A DNA stretch of 64,000 bases from Candidatus Latescibacterota bacterium (GTDB lineage: Bacteria > Latescibacterota > UBA2968 > GCA-2709665): NCBI GenBank assembly GCA_963667175.2, contig CAXXXF010000015.1, positions 256,001 to 320,000 of the forward strand. Direction: 5' to 3'. The notes beneath the pieces are model-generated. The model was not told the DNA's origin and did no database searches. It saw only the letters and a program-made list of their open reading frames with translations. How positions within the stretch are numbered: position 1 is the stretch's first letter; every line of letters begins with the position of its first letter. Shown piece by piece: positions 16,589 through 25,718 of this stretch. A program made the position numbers and the translations under genes.

Positions 16589-18136
16589 TCAGGCCTCCTC
16601 TTCTCTGCGTGCGCGGTCCGGAAACAGGAGGGAACCGAGAACCATCAGGACCAGCGCCAGCACGGTCGCGCCAAGGCCGACGTGGGCGCCGGTGAACGCG
16701 TCCAGCCCCAGGGCCCTCTTTACGGGCGTCAAACCGGCCACGGCGGCGGCGCCCGCGACAAGCGCGAGGTATGCGCCGGCGGTACTGGCGCGTTTCCAGT
16801 AGATCCCCGTGAGGAGCAGGGCGAACGCGCCGGTGAAGTAGATCGCGCCGCTCACCAGCATATAGTCCCAGAGGTCCTGGCCAAGCTCGTACCACAGGCC
16901 CCACACGAGCAGAAAAGCGCCGATGACAAAGATGAAGATCCGGGACATCGTCAGGCGGGCGCGGGTGGAAAGGGTATCGCCGGTGGCGGGGGCGACCACG
17001 TCGTGGGTAAGGACCGACGACCAGCAAAGCAGATAGCTGTCGTGGGTGGACATGAAGGCCGCCAGCAGTCCCGCCCCGATGAGGCCGATGAGACCGGCGG
17101 GGAGGATCTGGCTGAGGAAGACGGGCATGGCCAGAAGGGTGAGGTCCGAATTCCCCGTGGGGCCGCCGCCCGGAGAGAAGAAAACCCCGCGGGTCGTCTC
17201 GTCCTGGTAGAGAAAGACAAGAGCGCAGATGCCCAGAAACTGGGGCACCATGAACCGTACCAGAAAACCGATGGAGGACCAGGCGTAGAGTTTCTTCACC
17301 ACGGACGCGTTCTCAGCGGCGCAGGCCCTCATCACGGCGGTCTGCCACACGGCGCAGGAGACGATCCCGGCGGTGAAGATCATCCAGACGACGTACGACG
17401 GACCGAATCCTCCCCCCGCGTGAAGCGGATTGAACCCGGGCTCCCCGTGGATCGCCGCGACGGTATCGACGATTGCCGACCATCCGAGCCTGTCCACGGC
17501 GATCCCGCATGTGAGGATAACACCCACGGATAGCACGATAAACTGGACGTAATCCGTGATGACGACCGAAACCATGCCGCCGAGTATGGTATAGCACAGA
17601 ACCAGCAGGAGCATCACGGTCATGATCAGGGCGACGGACGTGGGATTCGTGATCCCGGTCAGGCCGGCGACGAAGATCGCGCCCGCCTTGAGGAACAGGC
17701 CCATGTTGAGGATGCCGGAAAGGGCGAGCAGCAGGCCGCCGAAGATACGGACGCCGCGACTGAATCGTCTTTCGTAGAATTCGGGAATCGTCATCACGCC
17801 CAGCTCGCGTAGCGGGACCACGATAAATCCGGTGAGGCCGATGATCAGGGTAACGATGCCGGCGATCAGGCCGATGTGAAAGGCCGCGAACCCGCCGGTG
17901 AATCCCTTCTGGGCGGAATACATGACGGTCACGAGCCCGAGTTCGCTTCCGATCATCGTGGCGACGGCCAGGTACGGTTTCAGTGAGCGGCCGGCGACGA
18001 TATAGTCGCTCATGCTGCGGATGTACCGGTTGGCATACAGACCGATGGCGACGGCGCCGAGCATGTACAGGGCGACAATTGCCCAATCGACGGAGCCGAA
18101 GTTGGAACTGATGCCGGTCAGGAGATCGGATGACAT
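16589..18136 (-). CDS. Sodium:solute symporter (SSS family)
   Basis: DYIVAGRSL, TIPEFYERRF, GGMVSVVITDYVQ, AAFMSTHDS; multiple TM helices. Confidence 0.92.
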   Translation of the reverse strand: MSSDLLTGISSNFGSVDWAIVALYMLGAVAIGLYANRYIRSMSDYIVAGRSLKPYLAVATMIGSELGLVTVMYSAQKGFTGGFAAFHIGLIAGIVTLIIGLTGFIVVPLRELGVMTIPEFYERRFSRGVRIFGGLLLALSGILNMGLFLKAGAIFVAGLTGITNPTSVALIMTVMLLLVLCYTILGGMVSVVITDYVQFIVLSVGVILTCGIAVDRLGWSAIVDTVAAIHGEPGFNPLHAGGGFGPSYVVWMIFTAGIVSCAVWQTAVMRACAAENASVVKKLYAWSSIGFLVRFMVPQFLGICALVFLYQDETTRGVFFSPGGGPTGNSDLTLLAMPVFLSQILPAGLIGLIGAGLLAAFMSTHDSYLLCWSSVLTHDVVAPATGDTLSTRARLTMSRIFIFVIGAFLLVWGLWYELGQDLWDYMLVSGAIYFTGAFALLLTGIYWKRASTAGAYLALVAGAAAVAGLTPVKRALGLDAFTGAHVGLGATVLALVLMVLGSLLFPDRARREEEA

Positions 18137-18199
18137 TTGCAATACTCAAGGGAGTCCGGAAAAGCACAAAGCCCTTTCCGGATTTTTTTTTTTGTCACA

Positions 18200-18817
18200 T
18201 CAAGGCCAGTTGGGGCGTTCCATCGAGAAGGAGTCGTCGACGCACACGTAGTCCAGGTACCCGAGGCGCCCCACGGGTCTCAAAGCCACGGTGTCGACGC
18301 GGCCGTCCTTTATTGCCCAATCCGCAATATGAATGCCGATCACCTGACCGAAAACGACCGTGTTCGGATCGTCCGGAACGTCGGTCGGCAGGTCCACGGT
18401 ACGGGTGTGGATACATTCCAGATGGACCGGACTTTCCGCCACGCGGGGAGGTTTTACGAGTTCTGACGGCGCCTGCGTGACGCCCGCGTACTCGAACTCG
18501 TCGACGTGTCCGGGCGCGGGCACGGCAGTGGCGTTCATCTGGGTGCGAAGCGCCCAGGTGGCGAGGTTGACCACGAATTCGCCGGTTTCCCGGGCGTTCC
18601 TTATCGAATCCTTCAGCCCGCCATGGGAGTGCGTGGTCGTTGCGGCGAACATGACCTGCGGGGGTGTGTAGGCCACCGCGTTGAAAAACGAGTACGGGGC
18701 CAGGTTGACCGTACCCCGTGCGTCGATGGATGAAATCCATCCGATCGGTCGCGGCACGACGATGGCGTTGAAGGGATCGCGGGGCAGGCCGTGGTTTTCA
18801 GACGTCCTGTAAAACAT
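18200..18817 (-). CDS. Flavin reductase family protein (DIM6/NTAB)
   Basis: PRPIGWISS, NLAPYSFFN, KDSIRN, PPRVAESP, GRLGY. Confidence 0.92.
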   Translation of the reverse strand: MFYRTSENHGLPRDPFNAIVVPRPIGWISSIDARGTVNLAPYSFFNAVAYTPPQVMFAATTTHSHGGLKDSIRNARETGEFVVNLATWALRTQMNATAVPAPGHVDEFEYAGVTQAPSELVKPPRVAESPVHLECIHTRTVDLPTDVPDDPNTVVFGQVIGIHIADWAIKDGRVDTVALRPVGRLGYLDYVCVDDSFSMERPNWP

Positions 18818-18957
18818 GCTCGCGGCCTCCCATACCGGAGGTTTACCTCAAATCGAATGATGACAACCGTTAAATTGGCCACAAAAAGCACAAAAGGCAC
18901 AGAAGGTCTCGGTGCAAAACGGCGAGAAGGTCTAGTTCGTCTTCCTTGTAGCTGGGG

Positions 18958-19959
18958 CTATTTCCATTTGAAAACGACGCCCAGCGCGTCACCGGGATCG
19001 TCGGCGAGCATGGTGTAGATTTCCTGGCACTGTTCCGGATCCGCGACGTGGGTGATCAGGTCTTCCACGGGCAACCTGCCCTCTCCCATCAGGCGCATCA
19101 CCAGCGCCCGGTCCCGTTCCTTCGCCCACCGGTAGTAGATGTGATCGGCCTCCGGCGTTTTGGGCTGGTGGGCGCCCAGGATGCTGACTTCCCTCAGGTG
19201 TACGTCGGCCAGAAAATCCATGTCGACGGCGCCGCGCGGGGAACCCAGTGCGACCACACGCCCTGCCGTGCACGCAAGCCGGACGGCGGTGGGATAAACC
19301 GCGGGTTTTCCGGTCGCTTCGATCACGACGTTGGCGCCGTCTTCCACGCAGTGTCCGCCGATCGCGTCCCTGACGTCGTCCACGTCGCCGGGATTGATGC
19401 AGAACCCGGCGCCGCGGCGACGGGCCGCGTCCAGGCGGAAACCGTCCAGGTCGACGGCGATCACCGGGAGGGCGCCGGAGAGCCGCGCGAGGGTCGCCGC
19501 GAGCTGACCGACGATTCCCAGGCCGATGACGACCACGACCTCGCCCAGTTCAATGCGCGCCACACGGATTCCGTGGATGGCGATTGCGCCCATGACCATA
19601 AAGGCGGCGGCTTGCGATGACACGGCGTCGGGGACTTTCCGATGGAAGGACCTGGGGCCCGAGAGGACGGAATGGCTCGCGTGATTCCCCTGTCCGGCAA
19701 CGCGGTCGCCGGGGCGGATGCCCTCAACGTCCCTGCCGACTTCCAGGACCGTGCCGACGTTGCAATAGCCGGCGCCGCGGGGGAAACGGACCGGGTTACC
19801 GGGTTCGCCTCCATGCGTCCAGCCGTGGATCTCGGTTCCGACGCTGACGGCGGTGTACTCGTTTTCGATAAGGACACCGTCATCCGGTACAGGCCCGGTC
19901 TCGAGGGACGCGACTTCCATCCGGCGAATGCCGGGAATGAGGAGACGTCTGGCTTTCAT
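18958..19959 (-). CDS. Zinc-binding dehydrogenase family oxidoreductase (MDR)
   Basis: SVGTE, GYCNVG, GLGIVG, IEATG; RBS AAGGA. Confidence 0.85.
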   Translation of the reverse strand: MKARRLLIPGIRRMEVASLETGPVPDDGVLIENEYTAVSVGTEIHGWTHGGEPGNPVRFPRGAGYCNVGTVLEVGRDVEGIRPGDRVAGQGNHASHSVLSGPRSFHRKVPDAVSSQAAAFMVMGAIAIHGIRVARIELGEVVVVIGLGIVGQLAATLARLSGALPVIAVDLDGFRLDAARRRGAGFCINPGDVDDVRDAIGGHCVEDGANVVIEATGKPAVYPTAVRLACTAGRVVALGSPRGAVDMDFLADVHLREVSILGAHQPKTPEADHIYYRWAKERDRALVMRLMGEGRLPVEDLITHVADPEQCQEIYTMLADDPGDALGVVFKWK

Positions 19960-20045
19960 CTGCAAGTCCTTTCATAATGGTCGATCGCGGACACGACGGG
20001 AAATGGTGACGGGCGCAGGAACCCGCCGGTCGGCGGGCGCGGTTT

Positions 20046-21083
20046 CTACGCCTGCCCGCGGTCCAGAGTCCCGCGGAAGAGTCGAAGGAAGTTGCCGCCC
20101 CAGACCTTGCGGATTTCGTTTTCCGAGAGGCCGCGGGCGAGCATGGCGCGGGTGAGCCGCACGAGCTTTGAGACGTCTCCGAAAACCGGAGTGGCCGAAC
20201 CCATGCCGTCGTAGTCGGAGCCGATGGCAACGTGGTCGATGCCCACCAGGTCCGCCACGTAACAGATATGGTCGACCATTCGATCCGCGGAAGGGTTTTC
20301 CGGATCGATAAAGCCCGGGAGAAACGCAATCCCCATCACCCCGCCGGCCCCGGCCAGCGCCCTGAGTTGATCGTCGGTCAGGCAGCGCCAGTGGTTGCAA
20401 ACGGAGAAGGCCGCGGTGTGGGTCATCGTTACCGGTAGCGAAGACTGCTCCAGAACCTGGTAGAAAGCCCTGTCGTTAATGTGGGCCAGGTCCGTGATGA
20501 TGCCCAGCCGGTTGCTCTCCTCAAGTACGGCTCTGCCAAAGTCCGTCAACCCGCCGGCGCTTCCGCGTTCCCGATCGCGGTCTTCAGGCGCGCACGGCCC
20601 GAACGGACTTCTGCTGCCCTGCAGCAAGGTCGGGTCGTTACCGCCTTCGCCGTGGGTGATTCCAATGCAGCGAACTCCCAGGCGGTAGTAAAGGCGCAAT
20701 GTGTCCATCTCTCCTTCCAGCCAGCGTCCGGCGCCTTCGATTGTAAGCAGGATGCCGATTTTGCCGGTTTCTCTCGCCCGTTCAACGTCCCGTGACGAGA
20801 ACACCAGCATCAGGTCATCGGGATAGAGCTCCACCGACGCAAGGGTCTGTTCCAGGGTAACCCGGACGTTTGCCGTGGGACCGTTGCCGACCACGAAAAA
20901 GCCGGCGTCGAACCCGCCCTCTTTCATCCGGTGAATGTCCATATGGTAGGCATCGTCCGGTTTTTTCAGGTCCATCGGACGTTCGCCCCGGTGCACGCGC
21001 TCCACGGGCGTGTCGTTGTGGCCGTCGACGATCAGGCACCTGTCGTGGACCGCCTGCGCTTCTTCAAGGGTGATTTCCGGCAT
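20046..21083 (-). CDS. Membrane dipeptidase (peptidase M19)
   Basis: DGHND, TIEG, DLAH, GSDYDG, WGGNFLR. Confidence 0.92.
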   Translation of the reverse strand: MPEITLEEAQAVHDRCLIVDGHNDTPVERVHRGERPMDLKKPDDAYHMDIHRMKEGGFDAGFFVVGNGPTANVRVTLEQTLASVELYPDDLMLVFSSRDVERARETGKIGILLTIEGAGRWLEGEMDTLRLYYRLGVRCIGITHGEGGNDPTLLQGSRSPFGPCAPEDRDRERGSAGGLTDFGRAVLEESNRLGIITDLAHINDRAFYQVLEQSSLPVTMTHTAAFSVCNHWRCLTDDQLRALAGAGGVMGIAFLPGFIDPENPSADRMVDHICYVADLVGIDHVAIGSDYDGMGSATPVFGDVSKLVRLTRAMLARGLSENEIRKVWGGNFLRLFRGTLDRGQA

Positions 21084-21153
21084 GACGAATTTCCTCTGCT
21101 GAACGTGGACGGTGAGGTTCCAGCGGGTCGGACATGCGCCGGTTCAGTACCGA

Positions 21154-22476
21154 CTACGGCGGATCGACGGGTACTTTCTGGTTCTTGCGGACCAGCGGAT
21201 CGTACGTGAATCCGTCGGAGCGTTTTTCGAACTCCGCGCGCGCCTTCTTCAGGAGATCCGGATTCCCGCAGAGATCGATCGCGCTTCCGGCAAAAACCTT
21301 GGCGGTCTGCCGGACGGCGCGTTCGGCGAAAGGCAGGGCGGCCTGCGCGGCCATGTCCCGGTGGTGTCCGGGCGTTCCCTTTGCGTAACAGACCATCTCG
21401 AAGCGACCCAGGGGCGCCAGCCATGAAACATTGTCCTCGTCGGTAGACCCCCTGCCCTGCGAGCCGCTGCCCTTGCCGATCTTCGTATTGAATCCCTTCT
21501 TGAATCCCAGGGCTTCGGCGCGCTCCCTGTCGGCTTCCGTGGGTTTGGGCGGCCCGAAGCGTTTCAGGTTTTCACGTACGATCTCACACATCGCCTTGTT
21601 GGGCAGACGGGGGTATACGGCGGTGATGCGAGACCATTTCATCTTCGTGTCCGTGGCTCTGGCGGCGCCCCGTGCGCATGCGGTGAGACGCTCGCGCACG
21701 TCGTCGACCTGCTTGCGGTCTTTCCCCCGTACGAAGTACCAGATTTTCGCATAGGCCGGCACCACGTTGGGTGCGTCGCCTCCATCGCGGATCACGGAAT
21801 GGATCCTGACGTTTTCGGGGACATGCTCCCGGAGATAGTTGGCGGCAATATCCGTGAGCATCACCCCGTCCAGCGCGCTGCGGCCCCGGTGGGCCGACGC
21901 CCCGTGGGCGGTACGTCCGAAGAATTCGTAGACGACGGAGTCCAGCGACGAACCCCCGAAATTATCGACGCCGGAAGAGTTTCCCGGATGCCAGGCGAGG
22001 CAGGCGTCCAGGTCCCGGAACGCGCCGTCGCGGGCCATATAGACTTTGCCGGCCAGCGTCTCTTCCGCCGGGCAGCCGTAGTAGACGATTTTTCCGGATG
22101 TGCCGGTTGATTCGAGAATCTTCGCAGCGGCGACCGCACCCACGGCCGGGGCAACGCCCAGGAGGTTGTGGCCTCAGCCGTGACCCCATTGCCCCTCCTC
22201 GGGACCGCAGTTGGGCAGCGCATCGTATTCGCCGAGCATCCCTACCGCCGGCTTGCCGGCGCCGCTGGTCGCGCGAAATGCCGTGGGGATATTCTTGAAC
22301 GGGAACTCGACGTCGAAGCCGCGCGAGGCCAGGTAGTCCGCGATGGCCCGGGAGGATTTAACCTCCCGGAACGGCCGTTCCGCCCAGGCGTGCACCCGGC
22401 CGGAGAGGTCCCTGGCCCGCTTCGACTCGGCAGCGACGGCGCGATTGACGAGACGCTTCTTGTCTTTCGGCTTCAT
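21154..22476 (-). CDS. M20 family amidohydrolase (AbgB-like) with in-frame UGA at 22174-22176; putative selenoprotein (440 aa)
   Basis: Track ORFs 22174..22476 and 21154..22143 are in frame. Readthrough gives EYDALP...GHG(UGA)GHNLLG...PAEE...WHP...GRSALD...GSTD. Confidence 0.85.
22135..22173 (-). promoter_or_regulatory. Candidate bacterial SECIS element
   Basis: GGGC-GUU-GCCC apical stem-loop; the loop starts 18 nt after the UGA with G then U; basal CCAC/GUGG pairing is possible. Confidence 0.55.
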
Positions 22477-22531
22477 GAGATTTCCCTTTCCATCCTGTCC
22501 ATGTTAATTCCGATTCTTGTACCGAATGTAT

Positions 22532-23440
<909 letters not shown>

Positions 23441-23443
<3 letters not shown>

Positions 23444-24529
23444 AAGACTCGCGACGGCATCGGCCACCGCATCGCCCGCCTCGCGCGTCTCGGCGGCGCC
23501 TCCCAGGTCAGCGGGGTGGTTCTTCGGACTCTCCAGCGTTCGATCCACGGCGCGGTCAATTGTCTCCGAGGCGGCGGCGGCTTCGGGATCGTTGTGGCGC
23601 GCACCCAGCCAGGACAGCATCATTCCCGCCGACAGGATCTGAGCCATGGGGTTGGCAACACCCTCCCCCGCGATATCGGGGGCGGTACCGTGGGATGGTT
23701 GAAAGACGCCGTAGCGGTCGCCCACGTCCGCGGACGGCGCCATCCCCATTCCGCCGATGGTGGCGGCGGCCAGGTCGGAGATGATATCACCGAACATATT
23801 TTCCGCGACGACGACGTCGTACCAGCCGGGGTTGCGCAGCTGGTACACGGTGAACGCATCCACGTAGGCATAGTCCCGTTCGACGTCGGGATAGGTTGCC
23901 GCGGTCTCGTCGTAGATCTGCCGGAAGAACGCCATGCTCTTCAGAATGTTGGCCTTGTCGACCGAGGTGACGCGGCTGGCGCCGTCCGAGGGCGCTCCCT
24001 TGCGCTGCCTTGCGATTTCAAAGGCGTACCGGACGATCCGCTCGGTGCCGGCGCGGGTGATCACCATGTTGTCCACGGCGAGGCTGTCACCGACGCGAAC
24101 CCCGGCGCCGCGGGAGGCATAGAGGCCCTCTGTATTCTCACGCAGGATGACGTAATCGAGCGGCGGATCTCCATCGAGAAGCGGAGGCACGCCGCGGTAT
24201 TTCTTGATGGGCCGGATCCCGGCGTAAAGGTCCAGTTCGAAGCGGAGCGTCAGTTGGGGCGCGATTTCCGTTCCGTCGGGAAAGCGGACGTCCGGATCGC
24301 CGGCCGAGCCGAAGAGCACGGCATCGGCCTGTTTGCAGGCTTCGAGCGTGGATTCCGGGAGGTCTTCGCCGGTCTCAGCGTAACACCCGGCGCCCACCGG
24401 ATGTTCGGAAAACGTGAATCGAAGGTCGGGATGCGGCTCCTCCAGGGCGAGGAGCACTTTGAGCGATTCCGCGACCACTTCCGGGCCGACGCCGTCTCCG
24501 GGGAGCACCGCAATGTTGTACGTTGGCAT
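23441..24529 (-). CDS. Isocitrate/isopropylmalate/tartrate dehydrogenase family protein
   Basis: LPGDGVGPEV, RENTEGLY, VDKANIL, NMFGDIISD, HGTAPDIAG...ANP. Confidence 0.92.
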
Positions 24530-24539
24530 TCCCGTCCTT

Positions 24540-25718
24540 TCAGGGGATGAAGTTCTGTGAAGGGCGGCGAGGACGCTGGCGATCGTGAATGCCGATGCGG
24601 AATCCGCCCTCGGACTTCACGCCCCGTTCCAGTACGTCCGGTTCGACGTCGAATCCCGCGCCGGGCGTTTCAGGGACGACCAGCCTGCCGTTTCGCGTCC
24701 GCCATCCGTCCAGGACGATGCCCGGCATGTCCGCGGGGGCCGCTTCCAGGAGGCTGAAGTTGGGAATGGACGCGGCGAAATGGGCATGGGCGTACCGTTC
24801 GATGACGCTGCCCCAGCAATGGGGCGCGCACGTCGCGCCCCATTGCTGGATTCGGTCCGCCGTGGCTTTCCACCAGGTAAGCCCCTTGTCGCGGAAGTCG
24901 TGCTGCACGACGTCAATCCATCCCTTTTCCACCATATGGAAGAAGTCGGGCGGAGGCGGCCCGGATTCACCGTCGGCAACGAGCGTGTCGTAGCCTCTCC
25001 GGTCGATGGCTTCCTTAAAGGCCTCATTGAACGCCCGGTCTTCGGGAAAGGGCTCTTCGAACCAGTAGATCCCCGCGTCCCGGCAGCGTTCGAGAATGTC
25101 CAGTGCGATATTGAGCGTGGCGCCGTTGTTGGCGTCAACGAGAATCTTCGCGTCCGGTCCCGCGGCTTCCCGGACCGCGTGGATCACCAGCACGTCCCTG
25201 TCGGCGCCTTCGCGAACCGGCATCCAGCGCGCGCCGCGCCCGATTTTGATTTTGAAATTGCGGTAGCCGGCATCGCGCCCGGTCCGGACTTCCTCGTGGA
25301 AGATTCGCCGCGCCCCGTCGTCGTTGGTTTCCAGATCGTCAATGTAGATGGAGCCGTCGTAGAGTTCCACTTCACGGGCGCCGCGCGCGCCCAGGAGATG
25401 GAAAAGGGGCGTCCCTTCACATCTGGCGGCCAGGTCCCACAGAGGCAGATCGATTGGCGCGCCCTCGGCGGTTGACCCGCCTGGAAGGTCAAAGAGCGCC
25501 GAGGGGCGCATTCCGAGCAGTGCTTCGGCGCGCTCCCTGTCAATGGCAGACCAGCCGATGCCCACGGCGCCGCCCGTGGTGCAGATGCGCACAACAGGAT
25601 CGGTGACGGCGGGACCATGGACGCCGATGCGGGCGTTGGATCCCACGACGCGCGGGCGCTTTCCGTGCAGTACGACTTTTTCGATCCTGGCGATCGGGTC
25701 GGAAAAAGCAATTGACAT
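24540..25718 (-). CDS. Mandelate racemase/enolase superfamily protein
   Basis: LWDLAAR, FKIKIG, VDAN, WFEEP, ADGE. Confidence 0.88.
   Translation of the reverse strand: MSIAFSDPIARIEKVVLHGKRPRVVGSNARIGVHGPAVTDPVVRICTTGGAVGIGWSAIDRERAEALLGMRPSALFDLPGGSTAEGAPIDLPLWDLAARCEGTPLFHLLGARGAREVELYDGSIYIDDLETNDDGARRIFHEEVRTGRDAGYRNFKIKIGRGARWMPVREGADRDVLVIHAVREAAGPDAKILVDANNGATLNIALDILERCRDAGIYWFEEPFPEDRAFNEAFKEAIDRRGYDTLVADGESGPPPPDFFHMVEKGWIDVVQHDFRDKGLTWWKATADRIQQWGATCAPHCWGSVIERYAHAHFAASIPNFSLLEAAPADMPGIVLDGWRTRNGRLVVPETPGAGFDVEPDVLERGVKSEGGFRIGIHDRQRPRRPSQNFIP

Follow-up and report, generated by a model that had tools for sequence, protein, structure and literature searches.

A conserved in-frame UGA at the metal-ligand cysteine position of a Latescibacterota M20D amidohydrolase, probably decoded as selenocysteine

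Does the single in-frame TGA in an amidohydrolase gene of Candidatus Latescibacterota bacterium mark a broken enzyme, or is it read as selenocysteine (Sec)? The gene lies in a stretch of 64,000 nucleotides (nt), here called the window (assembly GCA_963667175.2, contig CAXXXF010000015.1, positions 256,001 to 320,000 of the forward strand), and coordinates given without a prefix are those of the window. The frame runs from 22476 to 21154 on the minus strand and has 440 codons, with a TGA at 22174-22176 as its sole interruption. An earlier reading of the DNA by itself (the sequence-only reading) had placed this TGA at the cysteine (Cys) position of the motif GHG-C-GHNLLG, and the frame check agreed. 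The peptide context is ...EEGQWGHG-U-GHNLLGVAPAVGAV... The explanation that best fits the evidence, to which a probability of about 0.9 was assigned, is that the gene encodes a full-length M20D metallo-amidohydrolase in which the UGA would be decoded as Sec by way of a two-hairpin element, with Sec at the metal centre. The two features at issue are as follows.

21154..22476, minus strand, coding sequence of an M20D amidohydrolase with a predicted Sec, 440 codons followed by the TAG stop (21154-21156)
22174..22176, minus strand, UGA codon 101, predicted to be read as Sec, in the column of the metal-ligand Cys in GH(G/A)-C-GH(N/D)

Orthologue searches were done by reading through stop codons and counting them. 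An orthologue was found in 37 of 41 related genomes (E <= 1e-30), and exactly one TGA was counted in each of the 37. Across the phylum, 73 of 168 Latescibacterota genomes had a match (E <= 1e-60), yielding 76 match rows. All 55 rows at 69-100% identity contained one TGA, and the remaining 21, at 35-67% identity, were without a stop. The 55 genomes that keep the TGA span at least three GTDB families, and Cys codons were found in more distant homologues; the TGA is therefore not peculiar to this assembly. The TGA column was identical in 20/20 orthologous loci and in all 54 distinct Sec-type sequences. When 80 loci were extracted from genome contigs, the column was TGA in 23 and TGC or TGT in 53, and the motif was absent from 4. 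Such Sec/Cys pairing is classical for selenoproteins. Selection was estimated separately for the parts upstream and downstream of the UGA by comparison with nine orthologues (Nei-Gojobori). The ratio of nonsynonymous to synonymous substitution rates (dN/dS) was 0.07-0.17 for both, with proportions of synonymous differences (pS) of up to 0.65-0.8 in the same comparisons. Because dN/dS is low on both sides, both parts are translated and under selection. Taken across genomes, these comparisons indicate that the TGA-containing gene is very probably a genuine, conserved UGA-Sec gene.

The simplest alternative is a pseudogene or an assembly error, in which a TGC-to-TGA substitution truncated the enzyme. 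Such a substitution is one base change, and public gene calls do treat the Sec forms as truncated, holding them as proteins of 320-336 amino acids (aa), for example P0092 ('peptidase dimerization domain-containing protein'). This explanation can nevertheless be set aside almost entirely, given that the TGA is kept in 55/55 orthologues across at least three families, that dN/dS is equally low on either side of it, that synonymous variation is constrained directly after it (see below), and that an independent DNA contig spans the gene. The contig, 2287 nt long and from a public run, covers the whole gene. Among 40 of its 94 difference rows there was no difference at 22174-22176, and so no TGC or TGT among them.

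The protein is an M20D amidohydrolase of the HmrA / PM20D2 / AbgB-like branch. It scored 186.2 bits with TIGR01891 (amidohydrolase), for which the cut-off is 153.75; Pfam reported the dimerisation domain PF07687 alone. An AlphaFold2 (AF2) model was generated from a 60-sequence alignment. It was a single continuous fold, with a predicted local distance difference test (pLDDT) of 95 and a predicted template modelling score (pTM) of 0.92, and the two-domain M20 fold (catalytic and dimerisation) was borne out. The top match of the model in Foldseek was Staphylococcus aureus HmrA (3RAM) with a template modelling score (TM-score) of 0.93. Human PM20D2 (7YH4) had a TM-score of 0.85, and the other top matches were Corynebacterium CsAga (6SLF), then 4EWT, YxeP (1YSJ), AbgB-like 3IO1 and ILL2 (1XMB). 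Identity to the solved structures was only 24-27%. HmrA, PM20D2 (a beta-alanyl-lysine dipeptidase, also solved as 8ZEI) and CsAga (an N-acyl-glutamine aminoacylase) have the same fold as this protein and share with it the GH(A/G)-x-GH(N/D), PAEE and WHP motifs and the dimerisation domain. They differ from it in having a Cys codon where this gene has UGA.

In the alignment to structures, the U column coincided with the Cys of GH(A/G)CGH(N/D) in HmrA, PM20D2, 3IO1 and YxeP, and the assignment of the UGA to the metal-ligand Cys of M20D enzymes, made in the sequence-only reading, thus stood. Residues H99, C/U101, H103, E138, E139, H163 and H371 were invariant in the 60 sequences, and those from position 101 onward aligned to the matching motifs of HmrA, PM20D2 and YxeP. 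We take the ligand set to consist of the Cys-x-His pair, a Glu of the EE pair, the His of WHP and the C-terminal His, with a Glu as general base. In CsAga, the Cys bridges the active-site metals (PMC11511702).

The model and the invariant residues also bear on a split enzyme, in which translation would stop at the UGA and the C-terminal 329 residues would be made separately from the GTG at 22141-22143, within the 440-codon frame; a 329-aa open reading frame is indeed listed from that GTG. Only 15 of the 54 distinct Sec sequences have GTG at this codon, 33 having GCA or GCG and 6 having GTA, and a product started there would be without the invariant H99, U101 and H103. Together with the continuous fold of the AF2 model (pLDDT 95), this makes the split enzyme very unlikely. 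A full-length protein read through the UGA is the preferred reading, and it requires a means of decoding.

The sequence-only reading had found no sel genes in the window. In the genome, outside the window, selA, selB, selD and a tRNA-Sec are all present, as is a second gene with an in-frame UGA in addition to selD.

C6:264741-268256, minus strand, cluster of selA, selB and tRNA-Sec (551, 355 and 73 bits)
C13:163286-164209, minus strand, selD, a selenoprotein itself (CG-U-AAK, one in-frame TGA; 360 bits)
C16 around 77568, plus strand, formate-dehydrogenase-like (Fdh-like) gene, one TGA in ...CSRA-U-HAP...

The tRNA-SeC was called by ARAGORN with anticodon tca. The selenocysteine insertion sequence (SECIS) of selD has a 7-base-pair (bp) stem and a GGUC loop at +17; that of the Fdh-like gene has a 7-bp stem and a GGUCU loop at +18. 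Genome-wide, TGA terminates 1377 of 2354 open frames of at least 400 codons. It is the main stop codon and is therefore not reassigned genome-wide. A genome-wide scan for a UGA followed by a hairpin gave 596 candidates; when these were ranked by coding score, the amidohydrolase gene was at rank 4, and the Fdh-like gene was also recovered. Several further in-frame TGA sites, among them C7:157147(-), C2:35833(-) and C14:232164(-), have good coding scores on both sides and a downstream hairpin, and these may be selenoprotein genes or merely neighbours that share a frame.

Directly 3' of the UGA of the amidohydrolase gene there are two adjacent hairpins, H1 and H2, and a block in which synonymous variation is suppressed.

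22149..22159, minus strand, hairpin H1, GGGC-GUU-GCCC, 4 bp, nt 15-25 after the UGA, loop from +18
22131..22148, minus strand, hairpin H2, CGGCCGY-RGGU-GCGGUYG, 7 bp, nt 26-43 after the UGA, loop from +32 (tetraloop at 22138-22141)
22129..22161, minus strand, block of suppressed synonymous variation over H1 and H2

Synonymous-codon entropy was computed over the full length of the gene in windows of 12 codons. Of the 425 such windows for the 54 Sec sequences, the eight with the lowest values were those starting 1-8 codons after the UGA, at 0.46-0.65 against a mean of 1.17 (standard deviation 0.155). In 19 Cys-type relatives the same windows ranked 342-376 of 398, that is, with above-average variability. 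Two of the Cys forms (L165 and L167) encode the identical peptide GVAPAVGAV with other codons, so the constraint acts on the RNA and not on the protein. Paired third-codon positions were invariant or wobble-compatible, and the unpaired ones at nt 21, 33 and 45 vary.

Hairpins downstream of the TGA were thus conserved in the TGA homologues, over 54 distinct sequences. The H1 stem was invariant in 54/54 and its loop was GUU, GUA or, in one sequence of the 54 (L064), ACA; its free energy was -4.6 kcal/mol. The free energy of H2 was -9.3 kcal/mol, a value for the window's own copy only. In the H2 alignment 99.7% of cells were paired, with one pair occurring as G-C, G-U or A-U, and the loop U was kept in 53/54 sequences. 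A formal count over 41 distinct rows gave 99.8% of cells paired. An outer helix including the UGA (RNAalifold, -6..+60) was dropped, since its partner columns vary without keeping pairs.

The hairpins were compared with the bacterial SECIS (bSECIS) model. As set out in PMC13188914, the model has an apical loop of 3-9 nt whose first or second nucleotide is G, an upper stem of 4-16 bp, a distance of 16-37 nt from the UGA and a minimum free energy of <= -7.5 kcal/mol. H2 lies within the limits for loop, stem length and spacing in all 54 distinct sequences, and the window's copy within that for energy. H1 has the spacing of the model and misses its energy. H2 resembles the SECIS elements of selD and the Fdh-like gene in stem length and in its GGU loop; H1 resembles them in loop position. 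On these grounds H2 is the best bacterial SECIS match and the candidate SelB-binding hairpin, and H1 would be a compact spacer or a stacking helper beneath it.

The two roles might instead be exchanged, with Sec inserted, SelB bound by H1, and H2 merely an auxiliary helix. The sequence-only reading had taken GGGC-GUU-GCCC as the SECIS, and part of that proposal held. The loop of H1 is at +18, like those of the selD (+17) and Fdh-like (+18) elements, and its stem is conserved throughout. The remainder is less well supported, as a stem of 4 bp at -4.6 kcal/mol falls short of the model threshold of -7.5, the loop ACA of L064 contains no G, and the adjacent H2 fits better, resembling the genome's other SECIS hairpins in stem length and loop. 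SelB binding by H1 is accordingly regarded as possible and rather doubtful, and H2 is retained as the candidate site.

Several observations weigh against the account given so far and are collected here. The H2 loop is at 32 nt, against 17-18 nt in the canonical elements of selD and the Fdh-like gene, and the hairpin that is at 18 nt has only 4 bp and a triloop, without a loop G in L064. The H2 of orthologue L156 has a single A.C mismatch. Covariation is thin: a two-sided change was seen in a single one of the 11 pairs (3 cells), and the observed score was reached by 14 of 500 shuffles. The structure therefore rests on conservation and not on compensatory change. In a single-sequence fold, the 91 nt after the UGA did no better than shuffled sequence (z = 0.19). 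As this fold is unimpressive, the case for the element rests on comparative evidence. Contigs from RNA libraries (X18 and X19) cover 16/30 and 14/30 bins of the gene, and neither proves transcription; none of the RNA-library contigs extends across the UGA with 31 nt on each side, and they were counted neither for nor against expression. Finally, the same Cys is presumably a metal ligand in HmrA, PM20D2 and YxeP themselves.

The ends of some public contigs were also recorded. Contigs of three independent runs (X3, X18 and X19) end at 22201/22202 or begin at 22173, positions that coincide with the UGA and the conserved SECIS block. They may reflect branching of the assembly graph where many strains have identical sequence.

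The history of the Sec and Cys forms was followed in two trees. The first was built from GTDB representatives only (105 rows; L120 was dropped because it contains N). In it the 54 Sec forms were one clade (Shimodaira-Hasegawa-like approximate likelihood ratio test, SH-aLRT, 99), whose neighbour was a Cys form from a different Latescibacterota genome and which lay within Cys forms from Planctomycetota, Kiritimatiellota, Armatimonadota and Lentisphaerota. The single Cys-to-Sec change read from this tree was overturned when 56 metagenome proteins were added. A protein search had found many full-length Cys forms of 440 aa in metagenomes, at 66-77% identity, with Sec forms present only as the truncated gene calls described above. 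The second tree, in which 27 rows stood for the 54 Sec rows and the 56 metagenome proteins were included, has Sec and Cys forms intermixed; it requires 5 changes, and well-supported branches force at least 3 of these. The Cys forms P0003, P0004 and P0015 are nested in the Sec clade, and a scan of metagenome DNA for the first two gave their Sec relatives L163 and L166. The interleaving means that Sec and Cys have been exchanged repeatedly.

Repeated exchange (5 changes, at least 3 of them forced) also implies that Cys is functional at position 101. This favours an alternative in which read-through of the UGA inserts a residue other than Sec, or one in addition to it, such as a near-cognate Trp, Cys or Arg, or Cys carried on tRNA-Sec when selenium is scarce. 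Against it, the genome encodes the full Sec machinery and two further selenoprotein genes with a UGA, the SECIS-like element is conserved only in TGA forms, and TGA is the main stop codon. Decoding other than as Sec is thus judged unlikely, and decoding as Sec remains the reading that is carried forward.

Pattern searches were run over 185,579 species genomes to cover other lineages. The pattern G-H-(G/A)-TGA-G-H-N-(L/M/I/F) gave 78 matches, of which 49 belong to this orthologue group (profile >= 250 bits); the other 29 were rejected as chance matches in short frames. By this search, the Sec form of the GHG-U-GHN subfamily was found only in this orthologue group. The 44 matches to the pattern M-H-A-TGA-G-H-D included 38 M20D genes whose frame is open before and after the TGA; they come from Planctomycetota, Dehalococcoidia, Methylomirabilota, Poribacteria, Armatimonadota, Bacteroidia and other groups. 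Among these 38 genes, 27 have a hairpin of <= -7.5 kcal/mol, typically GGCCAUC-GGUCU-GAUGGCC at 22-24 nt after the UGA; the loops are mostly of the GGUC or GGGU type. Like the gene of the window, these YxeP/ILR1-type genes have TGA at the same metal-ligand Cys column. Unlike it, they belong to another subfamily and to other phyla, are 26-29% identical to this protein, and have a single canonical hairpin where this gene has two. The shared column suggests that Sec has taken the place of the same Cys in two M20D subfamilies that are only distantly related.

One of the MHA-TGA-GHD matches is in a cultured strain, Acidovorax sacchari HC-19 (L239). It had a weak score and a poor hairpin, and may be a pseudogene.

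Combined in one statement, a metal-bridging Sec in a non-redox hydrolase that arose independently in two M20D subfamilies (26-29% identity) of Latescibacterota and several other phyla, that flips with Cys, and that in one of them depends on a tandem-hairpin SECIS with its SelB loop at 32 nt, is held with modest confidence, the balance being slightly in its favour.

Known systems were compared. A YgeY-type 'selenium metabolism-linked' M20 hydrolase is encoded beside the genes of selenium-dependent molybdenum hydroxylases and is not itself known to contain Sec; it belongs to an M20 subfamily different from that of this protein. None of the NCBIfam selenoprotein models matched the protein. A May 2026 review (PMC13188914) has, in its Table 1, no entry for M20, peptidase or amidohydrolase among 119 prokaryotic selenoprotein families, and the words amidohydrolase, hydrolase, M20, peptidase, PF01546, PF07687 and TIGR01891 are absent from the paper. 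The main texts of deep-Sep and BSepDB make no mention of amidohydrolase, hydrolase, M20 or peptidase (their supplements, and the BSepDB database itself, were outside the scope). Full-text literature searches, with subscription journals not covered, returned no report of a Sec M20 enzyme. As far as the searched literature goes, the gene represents a selenoprotein family not described before, although the enzyme family to which it belongs is well known.

Sec as a ligand of metals has precedents, which according to PMC13188914 are the alpha subunit of formate dehydrogenase (Mo/W) and the [NiFeSe] hydrogenases (Ni). These systems are like the present gene in UGA recoding, in a SECIS within the coding region directly 3' of the UGA and in having Cys homologues. 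In them Sec is in the first metal shell, a position that is predicted for the present protein, and they are redox enzymes, whereas a hydrolytic di-metal centre without redox turnover is proposed here. The candidate SelB hairpin also differs in spacing, at 32 nt from the UGA as against 18 nt in the Fdh-like gene of the same genome. Insertion of Sec, as predicted from the genes and the RNA element, would follow the usual bacterial mechanism, the pair of hairpins being its unusual feature.

The proposed mechanism has the following steps. The UGA at codon 101 would be recoded to Sec by the cell's own SelA, SelB, tRNA-Sec and SelD. The signal for this would lie in the mRNA immediately after the UGA, where the two conserved hairpins stand side by side; H2 (7 bp, RGGU loop, +32) would bind SelB and H1 (+18) would act as a compact spacer or stacking helper. 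Sec would then replace the Cys that ligates or bridges the active-site metal ions in Cys-type M20D enzymes. Placed at the metal-ligand Cys, its selenolate would coordinate metal in a centre that carries out hydrolysis and no redox chemistry. The advantage of Sec could be a stronger, always-deprotonated ligand, a changed metal preference, or an oxidation of the ligand that is reversible rather than irreversible.

The gene is part of a cluster on the same strand, of which the following features were annotated.

20046..21083, minus strand, M19 membrane-type dipeptidase, downstream neighbour (PF01244, 270.6 bits)
23441..24529, minus strand, isocitrate/isopropylmalate-dehydrogenase-family (Iso_dh) gene, upstream neighbour (PF00180)
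16589-25718, minus strand, cluster of an MR/MLE enolase-superfamily gene, Iso_dh, the predicted Sec amidohydrolase, the M19 dipeptidase, a Zn-dependent dehydrogenase, a 181-aa open reading frame and an SSF Na+/solute symporter

The 181-aa frame had no Pfam match. The Iso_dh gene was upstream in 19 of 23 Sec-form loci, and in the same 19 a Zn-dehydrogenase match follows, which in two cases is weak and partial. In the 14 loci most similar to the window (75-95% identity) the gene is immediately followed by the M19 dipeptidase, and the remaining 9 Sec loci had no M19 match beside it. The M19 dipeptidase is likely in the same operon as the amidohydrolase, and its presence together with the SSF symporter hints at catabolism of peptides or N-acyl amino acids.

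The gap between Iso_dh and the amidohydrolase is 964 nt in the window and about 95 nt in the closest orthologous locus (L044). Group II intron domains were identified in it on the plus strand with Rfam, RF02003 (D1-D4) at 22656-22794 (100.7 bits) and RF00029 (D5-D6) at 23243-23321 (40.9 bits), without a large open reading frame between the domains. The insert looks like an ORF-less group II intron present in the source genome only.

Almost all of the prokaryotic selenoproteins in the catalogues are redox proteins, with a Sec that is redox-active or ligates a redox metal such as Mo, W or Ni. The Sec enzyme of the Latescibacterota and its Cys forms at 66-77% identity would provide a natural Sec/Cys pair for asking what selenium does at a metal site that does not cycle between redox states. 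The enzyme is mis-annotated, at 320-336 residues, in dozens of Latescibacterota genomes, and the analogous MHA-U-GHD genes of other phyla are likewise interrupted by an in-frame TGA. If the reading is true, the recurrent replacement between Sec and Cys points to a selective advantage, which may lie in metal affinity, in metal choice or in protection of the ligand from irreversible oxidation.

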